Shown here: positions 14,247-20,201 of the stretch, one piece after another | Layout: each line of letters begins with the position of its first letter | Numbering within the stretch: the stretch's first letter is position 1 | From: Candidatus Desantisbacteria bacterium CG1_02_49_89 | GTDB lineage: Bacteria; Desantisbacteria; UBA1551 | Direction of reading: 5' to 3' | Assembly (NCBI GenBank): GCA_001871075.1 | Contig: MNUP01000047.1 | Coordinates: 1-49,032 of the forward strand | Length of the DNA stretch: 49,032 bases | The notes under the pieces: generated by a model | What the model was told of the DNA's origin: nothing | The model's input: only the letters and a program-made list of their open reading frames with translations | The model's database searches: none | Translations under genes and position numbers: made by a program

Positions 14247-15516
14247 TCAACGTGTTTTGCTTGCATATTTGATCCTGTGCGTAACCGCAGCGTTCTGCAA
14301 CCGCGCATGCGGGGAAATCAGTTCGAAAGACATAGAATATAAAATTTACCTTTATCCCTCTGATGAAGCGCAGCCGCCGAAGCGTGCCCGCATACGCCGC
14401 GTTGCTTCAGTGCCGCCTTCGGTAAAAACGGTTGACTACAGTGTGTATACCGGTCTTGGCAGCATATATACCGATACTTTTCCGATAAGAGGGCTTCACG
14501 TGACTTCGTGGGCTGCCAGTTCTCTCGTTTCCTTTAACAGGCTTGTCGGGCTGGTAAACAGGACGGAGCTGAACGCGCTTGTTCTGGACCTTAAAGAGGC
14601 GGAGGGAAGGATCGCGTATGACAGCAGGCTTGATATCGCAAAAGAGCTGGGAACGCTGGAACCGATCGTTTCAAACATCGACGGGCTCATAACGATAATG
14701 AGGGAAAACAGGATCTTCCCCATAGCGCGCATCTGCGTTTTCAAGGATACGCTTCTTGCGCACAAAAAACCGGAGTGGGCGGTAAAAAACAAGAGCGGAA
14801 ACATCTGGCAGGATAAAAAGGGCCAGTCCTGGCTTGACCAGTATAACAGGGAAGTCTGGGATTATATAGTTATGATCGCGGAAGAAGCGGCTCAGAGGGG
14901 TTTCAGGGAGATACAGTTTGATTACGTAAGGTTCCCCAGCGACGGACAAATATCCGACTGCGTATTTCCCGCAAAGGCGAATTTCGGAGAAACCATTTCT
15001 CCGGCGCGCGTTATTCGAAGATTCCTGGAATATGCAAAAAATCGCCTGAAGCCTTACGGCGTGGCTATTTCGGCAGACCTGTTCGGGCTTACGTGTTCTT
15101 CCCTCGATGACCTGAACATAGGCCAGGTGATCGAAGAAGTGGCGAAGGAAGTGAATTACGTCTGCCCCATGACCTATCCCTCGCACTACTACCGCGGGAT
15201 GTATAACCTCCAGGTGCCGGAGGCAGAACCGTATAAGACTGTTTTCACAAGCATGAAAGACGTAAGGGTTAAACTCGGGGATACCAACCCGTGCGGCATA
15301 AGGCCGTGGCTGCAGGATTTTTCGCTGAAAGTGAAATACAACGCGTTCGAGGTGCAGGAGCAGATAAGGGCGGTCTATGAGAACGGCATAAGCGAATGGC
15401 TGCTCTGGAACCCAAGGTGCGTATACACGGAGGAGGTTTTAAGGCCTGAATCAGAGAGAAAGGCTGTAGCAAAGAAGATCCCGAATGGCGAAACGCTTAC
15501 GAAGCGGATCGAATAA
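14236..15516 (+). CDS. Putative exported glycoside hydrolase (DUF4015-like)
   Basis: TELNALVLDLK, IARICVFKD, GFREIQFDYVRFP, PMTYPSHY, RPWLQDF, WLLWN. Confidence 0.75.
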   Translation: MRSNQRVLLAYLILCVTAAFCNRACGEISSKDIEYKIYLYPSDEAQPPKRARIRRVASVPPSVKTVDYSVYTGLGSIYTDTFPIRGLHVTSWAASSLVSFNRLVGLVNRTELNALVLDLKEAEGRIAYDSRLDIAKELGTLEPIVSNIDGLITIMRENRIFPIARICVFKDTLLAHKKPEWAVKNKSGNIWQDKKGQSWLDQYNREVWDYIVMIAEEAAQRGFREIQFDYVRFPSDGQISDCVFPAKANFGETISPARVIRRFLEYAKNRLKPYGVAISADLFGLTCSSLDDLNIGQVIEEVAKEVNYVCPMTYPSHYYRGMYNLQVPEAEPYKTVFTSMKDVRVKLGDTNPCGIRPWLQDFSLKVKYNAFEVQEQIRAVYENGISEWLLWNPRCVYTEEVLRPESERKAVAKKIPNGETLTKRIE

Positions 15517-15773
15517 TGTTTTACACCTACGTGCTAAGAAGCCGGAAAAATCAGAAATTATATTACGGTTATACAAATAATCTGGAGAAAAGGATTGTTG
15601 AGCATAATTCGGGAAAGGATGATTTTACACGTCATAACGGACCCTGGGATCTTGTATATTTTGAGGAATTTACTTTAAAAACAGAAGCATTAAAACAAGA
15701 AAGATTCTTTAAGAGCGGCAAAGGAAGAGAATACGTAAGAGGAAAATTAAATAATTTTCAAATCGGGGAATAG
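15516..15773 (+). CDS. Small stand-alone GIY-YIG nuclease
   Basis: FYTYVLRS...LYYGYTNNLEKRIVEHN...WDLVYFEE...A..QERFFKSGKGR; visibly AT-rich relative to neighbours. Confidence 0.9.
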   Translation: MFYTYVLRSRKNQKLYYGYTNNLEKRIVEHNSGKDDFTRHNGPWDLVYFEEFTLKTEALKQERFFKSGKGREYVRGKLNNFQIGE

Positions 15774-15898
15774 CCCGCCCAGCAAGATTGGCGGGTAAAC
15801 TCCGCCTGGGTCAAAGACATCACTTATGTCTTTGACGGGTGGAAGAGCGGAGCGACATGCAATCATTCAGGCAGAGCACACAGGAAGCGCGCGCGGTT
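15757..15898 (+). pseudogene. Interrupted partial duplicate of the tRNA-Pro 5' half
   Basis: ttcaaatcggggaatagc (cf. 15933-15950) ... ccgcctgg [76-nt insert] agcgcgcgcggtt (identical to 15961-15973). Confidence 0.75.
15810..15885 (+). repeat. ~75-nt tRNA D-loop-inserted element, copy 1
   Basis: Perfect 11-bp hairpin gtcaaagacat/atgtctttgac, then a 49-nt segment 40/49 identical to 19499-19547. Confidence 0.8.
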
Positions 15899-15939
15899 AC
15901 AGTAATTAGGTATAAAAGTATTAGAGCGAAAATTCAAAT

Positions 15940-16013
15940 CGGGGTGTAGCGCAGTCTGGTAGCGCGCGCGGTTCGGGACCGTGAGGCCCCCGGTTCAAAT
16001 CCGGGCACCCCGA
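15940..16013 (+). tRNA. tRNA-Pro (CGG), CCA not encoded
   Basis: Acceptor cggggtg/caccccg+a, anticodon arm cgcgg-ttCGGga-ccgtg, T arm ggttcaaatcc. Confidence 0.95.
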
Positions 16014-16014
16014 T

Positions 16015-16122
16015 AGATTTTCGCAAAGCGAAAATCTGGAGCAATCGAACAATAGAAAATAGAGCAATAGATTAAGGAAAAAGTGAGATTGCGGTCTATT
16101 CTCTATTGTTCCATTTTCAGAA
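16015..16122 (+). repeat. ~105-nt structured tRNA trailer element, copy 1
   Basis: Hairpin agattttcgc/gcgaaaatct plus caatagaaaataga...tctattctctattg arms; homologous to 20095-20201. Confidence 0.8.
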
Positions 16123-19208: not shown

Positions 19209-19454
19209 CAAAGGGGCAAGGGACCAGATGCAAGGGACAAGTGTTGGAAAAGGATTTTTCTTTTAAATTAATTAAGCAAGGGAAATAAAGGGTGGGATTC
19301 GCCCGCCCATATCGCTTTTATCGATTGGGCGAAGCGAAATCTCGCTTACTTTAACCTGTAATCGTCTTCTGGATTGACGGATACGTGTCCGCCCATATCG
19401 CTTTCAGCGATTGGGCGAGACCTCGCCCGTTCATCCAGAGGATGAAACGGGCGG

Positions 19455-19472
19455 GGAGAGATGGCCGAGCGG
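19455..19472 (+). repeat. Exact duplicate of the first 18 nt of tRNA-Ser
   Basis: ggagagatggccgagcgg is identical to 19660-19677. Confidence 0.9.
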
Positions 19473-19547
19473 GTCCCGATAACTGACGTTATCGGGACGG
19501 GTGGAAGAGTGGAACGACAGGCGTTCATTTATACAGAGCACCCAGGA
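19473..19547 (+). repeat. ~75-nt tRNA D-loop-inserted element, copy 2
   Basis: Perfect 11-bp hairpin gtcccgataac/gttatcgggac, then gggtggaagagtggaacgacag...cagagcacccagga. Confidence 0.8.
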
Positions 19548-19659
19548 ACCGCATCACTTATGTTAACCGATGATTAATTGTAATATTTTGGGTTGGGATC
19601 CGCCCGTACCTTTCAGGTCGGGCGAGATCTCGCCCACTTGCCTATAAGGCAAGATGGGC

Positions 19660-19747
19660 GGAGAGATGGCCGAGCGGCTTAAGGCGTGCGCTTGGAGAGC
19701 GTATAACCTGAAAGGGTTCGTGGGTTCGAATCCCACTCTCTCCGCCA
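19660..19747 (+). tRNA. tRNA-Ser (GGA)
   Basis: Acceptor ggagaga/tctctcc+g+cca, anticodon loop ttGGAga, long variable arm, T arm gtgggttcgaatcccac. Confidence 0.96.
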
Positions 19748-20094
19748 TACTACGCTCTACCTGATTATGCACAGGAAGTGTACCGAGCTTCGAATGGCAG
19801 GTTTTTAAAAAGGTAAAAAAATGTATTATGTATATATTTTAAAAGATCAAGACAACAAAACATATATTGGTTCAACCAATAACATAGAAAGAAGACTCAG
19901 GGAACACGGGGAAGGTTGTTGTTATTCGACAAGATATTTTAAGAAAGCAGTTCTAGAAGCATATATTGCTGTGAAGGATGAGTCAACAGCAAGAAAGTTG
20001 GAAAAGTATTTAAAGGTAGGTTCAGGCAAAGCATTTCTTAAAAAGAGAATTTTAACTGACGAAGCCTCGGCGTAGTCAGTCCCACTCTCTCCGC
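19746..20094 (+). mobile_element. 349-bp GIY-YIG cassette bounded by a 15-bp duplication of the tRNA-Ser 3' end
   Basis: tcccactctctccgc at 19731-19745 and again at 20080-20094; palindromes at both ends; no integrase. Confidence 0.65.
19821..20075 (+). CDS. Small stand-alone GIY-YIG nuclease
   Basis: YYVYILK...TYIGSTNNIERRLREH...ARKLEKYLKVGSGKAF; AT-rich. Confidence 0.9.
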   Translation: MYYVYILKDQDNKTYIGSTNNIERRLREHGEGCCYSTRYFKKAVLEAYIAVKDESTARKLEKYLKVGSGKAFLKKRILTDEASA

Positions 20095-20201
20095 AGTTTT
20101 TCGCTACAGCGAAAAACTAGAGCAATTGAGCAATGGAAAATAGAAAATGGATAAAGACAAAGCGATATTGCGGTCTATTTTCTATTGATCCATTTTCGGA
20201 A
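20095..20201 (+). repeat. ~105-nt structured tRNA trailer element, copy 2
   Basis: Hairpin agtttttcgc/gcgaaaaact; shares attgcggtctatt(c/t)tctattg(t/a)tccattttc with copy 1. Confidence 0.8.

Follow-up and report, generated by a model that had tools for sequence, protein, structure and literature searches.

Introduction

The REP, BIME and REPIN repeats that are associated with RAYT proteins of the Y1 class are short, non-coding hairpin DNA repeats that occur in several copies, start with a fixed dinucleotide and show paired changes in their stems. Here we analyse an element with the same properties, which we call E and which is present twice in a stretch of 49,032 nucleotides (nt) from the uncultured groundwater bacterium Candidatus Desantisbacteria bacterium CG1_02_49_89 (contig MNUP01000047.1 of assembly GCA_001871075.1, positions 1 to 49,032 of the forward strand); this whole stretch is referred to below as the window. 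E differs from the REP and REPIN repeats in having eight copies in its genome, in possessing a conserved 49-nt second part and in residing only at GG sites within fragments of transfer RNA (tRNA) genes, and no inverted pairs of E were seen.

The miniature derivatives of IS200/IS605 and also IS607 resemble E in their hairpin ends, in their lack of classic inverted repeats and in their very short target, and IS607 inserts at GG. The target of 11/11 distinct E copies is GG. Of the corresponding enzymes, the genome studied here contains one canonical TnpA, located elsewhere, no TnpB and one large serine recombinase. The hairpin of E lies flush with the left junction, unlike the ends of IS608.

Partial copies of tRNA genes are also found beside larger mobile DNA, and Williams is said to have described in 2002 those that integrating elements leave behind. 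In the att-site copies of such elements (attL/attR; PMC9897764) a truncated and an intact copy are adjacent and the gene stays functional, as at the loci carrying E. These loci differ in that the two copies are only 16-119 nt apart without cargo or integrase, that it is the 5' part that is duplicated, and that the dead copy is split in the D-loop.

Two systems based on GIY-YIG nucleases are also close. As described in the work on Ssn and its NTS/SRM repeats (Chenal et al. 2025, PMC11893778), small single-domain GIY-YIG genes occur in a genome full of hairpins that begin with GTC, as they do here, and the Ssn nuclease recognises the hairpin repeats exclusively in single-stranded form and cuts a few nt upstream of them, a position that in E would be near the tRNA/E junction. 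The published SRM pattern differs from E, where GTC is preceded by G and followed by other bases; the GIY-YIG proteins of the window match UPF0213 structures and are at most putative members of the Ssn subfamily, cd10448; and the word tRNA is absent from the main text of the article. The free-standing homing endonuclease SegB of phage tRNA clusters (PMC2330249, PMC13096335) also combines a GIY-YIG protein with tRNA genes and is reported to drive segmental amplification around the tRNA genes, a nuclease-driven duplication of tRNA segments (PMC13096335). SegB is, however, a larger phage protein that acts on double-stranded DNA, and the text consulted describes neither a hairpin element nor a dead tRNA split in a loop.

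A literature search that left subscription journals largely outside its scope found no description of a D-loop hairpin element in bacterial tRNA gene copies, nor of chromosomal single-domain GIY-YIG genes nested in tRNA genes. E resembles known kinds, namely palindromes of the REP type, miniature insertion elements and the partial tRNA duplicates found next to mobile DNA. What appears to be new is the combination: a unit of two hairpins that strictly follows GG in a loop and resides exclusively in dead 5' halves beside a live gene. The anatomy of E, its site rule, the existence of a family with a narrow distribution, the empty sites in a relative and the exchange of hairpin modules between copies are direct observations, and E is best read as part of a wider remodelling of tRNA loci that also involves single-domain GIY-YIG genes.

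Anatomy of the element

E is a 75-nt unit that consists of a 27-nt perfect hairpin (HP1) and a 49-nt tail. Its two copies in the window lie at 15810-15885, in a partial copy of a tRNA-Pro gene, and at 19473-19547, in a partial copy of a tRNA-Ser gene, and their tails are identical at 40/49 positions without gaps. These coordinates, the tail identity and the perfect 11-bp stems of both hairpins had been reported in a preliminary description of the window and agree with the sequence. In the Pro copy, HP1 (15810..15836, plus strand) has the stem GTCAAAGACAT / ATGTCTTTGAC with the loop CACTT, folds on both strands and is scored at 92.2 bits by covariance model R1 (described below). The tail of this copy (15837..15885, plus strand) is closed by a stem between GGGTG (15837-15841) and CACAC (15877-15881), in which the one mismatch (G.A) that had been noted earlier is indeed seen, and it contains the conserved blocks GGAAGAG, GGAGCGAC and CAGAGCAC and ends in CAGGA. 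In the Ser copy, HP1 (19473..19498, plus strand) is of the GTCCCGAT...ATCGGGAC type, with the stem GTCCCGATAAC / GTTATCGGGAC and the loop TGAC, and the tail (19499..19547, plus strand) is closed by GGGTG (19499-19503) and CACCC (19539-19543).

Using a degenerate 21-nt core of E and allowing up to three mismatches, we found only these two sites in the window, and 0/100 shuffles gave a match. Contigs from four other sequencing runs span both copies with zero differences, and E is therefore not an assembly artefact. The sole joint at E in the comparison of assembled contigs was a palindrome-type turn-back (15841/15808).

The Ser copy is followed by the extension ACCGCATCACTT (19548..19559, plus strand), which has relatives (AACCRCRTCA...) at other E copies. 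Such an AACCRCRTCA-like stretch follows E in all five copies that are in fragments of the long-arm (Ser/Tyr) type and have no resumed tRNA sequence behind them; it is either carried along with E or a decayed tRNA segment.

Site rule and distribution

The genome assembly to which the window belongs comprises 150 contigs (2.48 Mb, 93.5% complete) and contains eight E copies, on contigs C35, C47, C81, C88 and C113, and 6/44 tRNA genes of the genome have an E. In the window, E stands in a Pro(CGG) fragment followed by the intact tRNA-Pro(CGG) and in a Ser(GGA) fragment followed by the intact tRNA-Ser(GGA). The same arrangement is seen for a Phe(GAA) fragment on C47 and a Tyr(GTA) fragment on C88, which precede the intact tRNA-Phe and tRNA-Tyr, respectively. 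A Pro(TGG) fragment on C47 carries E in its D-loop and a second, more diverged E in its anticodon loop, after TTTGGG, and this doubly occupied dead copy is followed by the intact tRNA-Pro(TGG). A Ser-type fragment on C35 has E followed by a truncated tRNA-Ser, and a Ser(TGA)-type fragment on C113 has E without a downstream tRNA.

We built covariance model R1 from the eight copies of this genome and ran it on 60 other genomes, of which one, the only relative from the same order, contained E (one copy); the other 59 were domain-level relatives. In addition, one exact-pattern scan each was made of species genomes and of metagenomes, and the matches were rescored with the model. Among the four loci matched in species genomes the model confirmed one, in a Candidatus Desantisbacteria record whose E scores the same as that of the relative, while L015 was weak (18 bits) and L017 and L018 gave nothing. 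The 15 loci matched in metagenomes included contigs whose E scores the same as copies of the genome studied here, plus two new variants, one upstream of tRNA-Pro(GGG) (L022) and the other upstream of tRNA-Ser(CGA) (L028); the model found nothing in L019, L020 and L023, and L027 was weak (21 bits) and without tRNA context. Viral contigs gave 0 matches to the core pattern of E.

In each of the 11 distinct copies the GG of a tRNA 5' fragment is followed immediately by the GT of E, which makes the left junction exact. Ten of these copies are in the D-loop and one is in the anticodon loop, after the GGG of the anticodon loop of the pseudo-tRNA-Pro(TGG). The host fragments derive from tRNAs for Pro(CGG), Pro(TGG), Pro(GGG), Phe and Tyr, with four more fragments of the Ser type, and E has the orientation of the tRNA in 11/11 copies. 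Downstream there is an intact tRNA of the same kind within 16-119 nt in 8/11 copies, a truncated tRNA-Ser in 2/11 and nothing in 1/11. In five host fragments, i.e. Pro(CGG), Pro(TGG), Pro(GGG), Phe and the Ser(TGA)-type fragment, the local tRNA sequence resumes after E and continues to the anticodon region, and the E in the anticodon loop is followed by CGAGCAAAGCAGG, which contains the 3' strand of the anticodon stem (GCAGG).

This anticodon-loop copy (C47:58944-59041, minus strand; L003) is flanked by CCTGCTTTG ... CAAAGCAGG, a 9-bp inverted repeat that lengthens the natural 5-bp anticodon stem, as if it had arisen from fold-back copying. At C35:850-945 (minus strand), and at the locus of the relative (L007:1380-1470, minus strand), the tRNA-Ser copy that follows E is cut in the anticodon loop and continues into unrelated DNA, and this cut may be a further insertion point or the junction of an island.

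In the same-order relative, tRNA-Pro(CGG), tRNA-Pro(TGG) and tRNA-Tyr(GTA) are found in the same gene or cluster context without dead copy, E or GIY-YIG gene; tRNA-Pro(CGG), for example, comes directly after the upstream gene, with no intervening GIY-YIG gene. At the loci inspected, 33/34 distinct tRNAs of the relative have no partial 5' copy, a set that does not include Phe and Ser(GGA), and its single E copy is at a Ser locus. In the genome studied here, the region upstream of the intact tRNA-Ser(CGA) on contig C24 (5378-5560, minus strand) holds a truncated E, of which only the last ~8 nt remain, with one base different, joined to a AACCGCATCATTC... stretch that is the same as the one behind E at related Ser loci. 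The empty orthologous sites, the lone Ser-locus copy of the relative and this remnant together indicate that E has been gained and lost locus by locus.

Paired changes and exchange of hairpin modules

The alignment of the 11 distinct copies was fitted to the covariance model, and the following counts are therefore biased towards structure. Pairing was found in 97.1% of cells compared with 84.2% in shuffles and at most 47.6% in controls with slid partners, and 8/16 pairs showed double-sided changes; 0/500 shuffles reached the observed values. Double changes affect 5/11 pairs of the hairpin and 3/5 pairs of the closing stem GGGTG/CACCC, which is GGATG/CATCC in the Tyr copy and GGGCA/TGCCC in the second Pro(TGG) copy, and the G.A mismatch in the closing stem occurs in three E copies. 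G.U cells are rare (2/170 in the stems of E) and the remainder is essentially Watson-Crick; folding the opposite strand, or folding with DNA parameters, gives a structure just as good. Inside the tail the sequence is conserved, but the copies share no stem in the same register: RNAalifold gave only a G.U-rich helix, and by eye the inner stems differ in register between copies. The earlier suggestion that the structure is under selection consequently stands for the hairpin and the closing stem but not for the middle of the tail.

It had also been proposed that the Pro and Ser copies have a fully covarying hairpin. This does not hold, as the two hairpins are not two states of one stem. Hairpins of the GTCCCGAT...ATCGGGAC type make up 37/285 of the GT-initiated hairpins in the genome and are present in both orientations, while the GTCGAAGACAT-type hairpin is found in E only. 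The hairpin of the Ser copy thus belongs to a genome-wide family, and the Pro/Ser difference is the replacement of one module by another; gradual paired changes of the hairpin are seen among E copies other than this pair. A comparison of two Ser loci from two organisms, L028 and C35, which are apparently orthologous judging by their flanking sequence, revealed that the hairpin module has been swapped although the tails differ at just two positions. The swap between loci with near-identical tails implies that E copies exchange parts as DNA.

The tRNA loci of the window

At the Pro locus, the 5' part of the pseudo-tRNA-Pro (15764..15809, plus strand) consists of the acceptor 5' strand and the D-arm up to the D-loop GG. 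Compared with the live tRNA-Pro(CGG) gene (15939-16014) it has diverged, and its D-arm is split by an extra 28-nt CCGCCC...GGCGGG hairpin (~15775-15802). After E the tRNA sequence resumes, as had been described, with AGCGCGCGCGGTT (15886..15898, plus strand), which is identical to tRNA-Pro positions 21-33 and ends in the anticodon loop. A spacer (15899..15938, plus strand) leads to the intact tRNA-Pro(CGG) (15939..16014, plus strand; found by ARAGORN and, as RF00005 of Rfam, with 64.7 bits), which begins 53 nt after E. The final ~11 nt of the spacer, AAATTCAAA, repeat the sequence that precedes the pseudo copy, and the duplicated unit therefore includes leader sequence.

At the Ser locus, the 5' part of the pseudo-tRNA-Ser (19455..19472, plus strand) ends at the D-loop GG, and over its 18 nt it matches the beginning of the real gene (19660-19677) exactly. 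Insertion after the D-loop GG, as claimed in the preliminary description, is thus seen at both loci. The intact tRNA-Ser(GGA) (19660..19747, plus strand; ARAGORN; Rfam 54.8 bits) starts 112 nt downstream of E. Upstream of the pseudo copy lies a structured leader of the Ser type: the Ser tRNA genes share long structured leaders (19280-19454 and 19590-19659 in the window; C142:1000-1236 and C113:3740-3811 elsewhere) with alternating CGCCC/GGGCG segments that could form mutually exclusive pairings and whose last hairpin is flush with the tRNA 5' end. Judged from its sequence, such a leader looks like an attenuator or a processing signal.

Both window loci also share a trailer (16015-16110 and 20095-20200) that consists of a TTTTCGC-NNN-GCGAAAA hairpin followed by a long AATAGA-like inverted repeat. 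It directly follows the intact tRNA in the Pro case and, in the Ser case, a displaced 15-nt fragment of the tRNA 3' end behind a GIY-YIG gene, and partial versions of it are found after several other tRNA genes on other contigs. Promoter and terminator scans gave 0 sites at the Pro locus and, at the Ser locus, sites only in and around the GIY-YIG gene.

Several identities were considered for E and rejected. In an Rfam search of the whole window at gathering threshold the two tRNAs were the only matches, and at three other E loci nothing was matched on E at an E-value of up to 5. The tail is not a decayed tRNA piece, given that its local alignment scores against the 44 tRNA genes (9-14) lie within the range of shuffled tails (maximum 13-16). 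Nor is E the scar of an integrated island: no integrase or cargo lies in the 16-119 nt between dead and live copies, and the only open reading frame of at least 50 amino acids that overlaps the gaps in the window is an unannotated frame of 69 amino acids (19563-19772), which crosses the intact tRNA-Ser on the opposite strand.

Single-domain GIY-YIG genes and dead tRNA copies

Each window locus also contains a small single-domain GIY-YIG gene, which is context and not part of E. The first (15516..15773, plus strand; from the list of open reading frames; 85 amino acids; Pfam PF01541, 63.9 bits) overlaps the start of the pseudo-tRNA-Pro with its final codons and stop, and the second (19821..20075, plus strand; 84 amino acids; PF01541, 52.7 bits) begins 74 nt after tRNA-Ser. 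Directly behind the second gene is the displaced copy of the tRNA-Ser 3' end (20080..20094, plus strand), an exact second occurrence of the 15-mer at 19731-19745. The solved structures nearest to the two proteins are those of the UPF0213 proteins 1zg2 and 1ywl.

The genome has seven such genes, five of which, including those of the window, are within 250 nt of a tRNA gene, and four of the genes sit between a truncated and an intact tRNA copy. In the case of Cys (C74:10790-11230) the dead copy extends to the T-stem; in that of Met (C122:2960-3340) it extends to the T-loop, where the GIY-YIG start codon is located; in that of Ser(TGA) (C142:415-1325) it stops at the D-loop GG; and in that of Ser(GGA) (window 19821-20094) it is the 15-nt copy of the 3' end behind the gene. 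Other GC-rich hairpins are found at the anticodon-loop position of the dead tRNA-Cys and in place of the anticodon arm of the dead tRNA-Met. Taken together, these GIY-YIG loci and the hairpin-bearing dead copies of Cys, Met and Pro indicate that dead tRNA copies also occur without E, that their breakpoints are in or near loops and that hairpins collect there.

In the dead copies, the stretches derived from tRNA match the live gene at every base (Phe 22 + 17 nt, Pro(TGG) 20 + 18, Tyr 19, Ser 18), and the leaders have diverged. E is not the end of a GIY-YIG cassette, since it does not resemble the flanking sequence of any of the five GIY-YIG genes located outside the window; a GIY-YIG gene lies within 300 nt of E at 2/7 E loci of the genome, and there is none at the locus of the relative (0) or on the two contigs with new variants (0).

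Candidate enzymes

Ten matches to Y1_Tnp were found, on contigs C83, C13, C100, C38, C80, C114, C23, C111 and C51, and three in the relative. One is a canonical TnpA frame of 150 amino acids, and the other nine are frames of 76-337 amino acids with lower scores, a pattern that suggests RAYT-like genes in a repeat-rich genome. The contigs with Y1_Tnp matches and those with E do not overlap, and a RAYT gene flanked by its own repeats is not seen. A search for TnpB (PF07282) gave none in the genome, the only large serine recombinase has 552 amino acids, and the one reverse transcriptase match (partial, on C119) is not near any E copy. Nor do the hairpins of E fit the published Ssn/SRM pattern, which has 10 matches in the genome compared with 8-18 in five shuffles, and none on the contig of the window. 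A possible lead on the association of small GIY-YIG proteins with the D-loop GG is a prokaryotic GIY-YIG domain of the Slx1 cluster that is reported to be fused to a TrmH-like methyltransferase, the modifier of D-loop G18 (PMC1564403).

Discussion

We propose, with a probability of about 0.5, that E is a non-autonomous DNA palindrome, small and restricted to one lineage, which lodges behind GG in the loops of tRNA genes and survives only in dispensable partial duplicates. It is built of two hairpins, the first perfect and REP-like (GT...AC), the second imperfect and closed by GGGTG/CACCC. E would enter after GG in the loop-coding parts of the gene, most probably while the tRNA gene is single-stranded and folded, and would move as DNA, catalysed in trans by a hairpin-recognising single-strand DNA enzyme of the genome, the candidates being a UPF0213/Ssn-like GIY-YIG nuclease or a RAYT-like Y1 transposase. 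Break repair at the loop would give rise to the partial duplication, which would persist because an intact tRNA is selected for. A tRNA gene present in a single copy could not take up E without killing the cell, and this would explain why E is confined to 3'-truncated spare copies that precede an intact one. The duplication of the leader with the tRNA part, together with the fact that most dead copies end in the anticodon loop, points to loop breaks that were repaired by local duplication. Of the three readings offered in the preliminary description, a mobile unit that targets the D-loop GG is thus the closest: the GG precedes 11/11 copies, different tRNAs are occupied in different genomes and orthologous sites in the relative are empty.

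Several results weigh against this proposal. No insertion polymorphism and no joint that skips E was found in the contigs of the four other runs, a weak negative since contigs drop rare variants, and simple insertion leaves unexplained that dead copies end in the anticodon loop. A GIY-YIG gene is near E at only two of the seven loci of the genome and E has no sequence in common with the flanks of these genes, the published Ssn motif neither fits the hairpins of E nor is enriched, no E copy is on a contig with a Y1_Tnp match, and the position of E ties it to neither a transposase nor a nuclease. Given this lack of a positional link and the poor fit of the Ssn motif, the enzyme that mobilises E is one that we infer. 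Finally, the combination of identical tRNA parts with diverged leaders, as far as sequence comparison goes, fits gene conversion and equally selection on RNA.

The last point bears on two other explanations, both of which we consider unlikely. One, in line with the ncRNA reading of the preliminary description, would make E a folded RNA module that belongs to the 5' leader of the tRNA precursor, the dead 5' half and E being co-transcribed with the live tRNA. Two helices kept through double changes, a conserved primary sequence in the tail, the tRNA orientation of every copy and the identity of the tRNA parts of the dead copies beside diverged leaders would all be expected of such a module, and in the Tyr and Pro(TGG) cases E ends 16-18 nt before the live tRNA and so is probably within the precursor. 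Its role would be in processing or regulation, e.g. by competing for the 3' strands of the live tRNA or by offering a platform for protein binding. However, E has no match in Rfam, the interior of its tail has no consistent stem, and G.U pairs are nearly lacking while the opposite strand and DNA parameters give folds that are as good. Moreover, E accompanies only 6/44 tRNA genes, is absent at three orthologous tRNAs of the relative, has a hairpin that can be replaced by a generic genomic one, and in one copy has no downstream tRNA to lead.

The other is that E is not itself mobile but arose once in a dead tRNA copy and was spread passively, by segmental duplication and by gene conversion between tRNA leaders after nuclease breaks. 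Such conversion would account for the modules exchanged between copies, for the same AACCRCRTCA stretch behind five of them and for the duplication of the leader together with the tRNA part; GIY-YIG genes are present in the same loci, and amplification of a tRNA segment driven by SegB has been published (PMC13096335). What homology-driven conversion would not be expected to produce is an exact GG/GT junction in 11/11 copies, in tRNAs that share little sequence and once in an anticodon loop, and in five copies the flank after E is local tRNA sequence. Far less probable than either is an intron-like insert, as the preliminary description had also considered, or a piece of a split tRNA, which processing of the RNA would have to take out to yield a functional tRNA. 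The positions of E, D-loop and 37/38, match known sites of archaeal tRNA introns. The interrupted copies, however, end in or near the anticodon loop and have no T-arm or 3' acceptor strand, an intact gene stands beside most of them, a search for the tRNA-splicing endonuclease (PF01974) gave 0 matches in the 93.5%-complete genome, and no group I or II intron model of Rfam matched. The missing 3' half and the lack of an endonuclease match therefore argue that E is not an intron.

The proposal of a loop-seeking palindromic DNA can be extended, more speculatively and in a form that we regard as rather unlikely, to the GIY-YIG genes: both might belong to a single undescribed class of parasites of single-stranded DNA, E as its non-autonomous form and the single-domain GIY-YIG genes as its autonomous form. 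These would enter tRNA genes folded as cloverleaves, in the D-loop after GG, in the anticodon loop or in the T-loop. Break repair with duplication would leave one intact gene, so that an insertion would restore the target it had hit and do no harm, and the hairpin would serve as the handle for the nuclease.

Should E function as RNA, bacterial tRNA precursors would have a new leader element. If it is loop-seeking DNA, tRNA genes would be colonised by tiny palindromes and not only by integrases at their 3' ends, and such insertions would be tolerated by way of partial gene duplication. This would explain the half-tRNA debris upstream of tRNA genes in poorly studied phyla, would warn annotators of false tRNA fragments, and would provide a concrete natural substrate for the widespread small GIY-YIG (UPF0213/Ssn-like) and RAYT-like enzymes.

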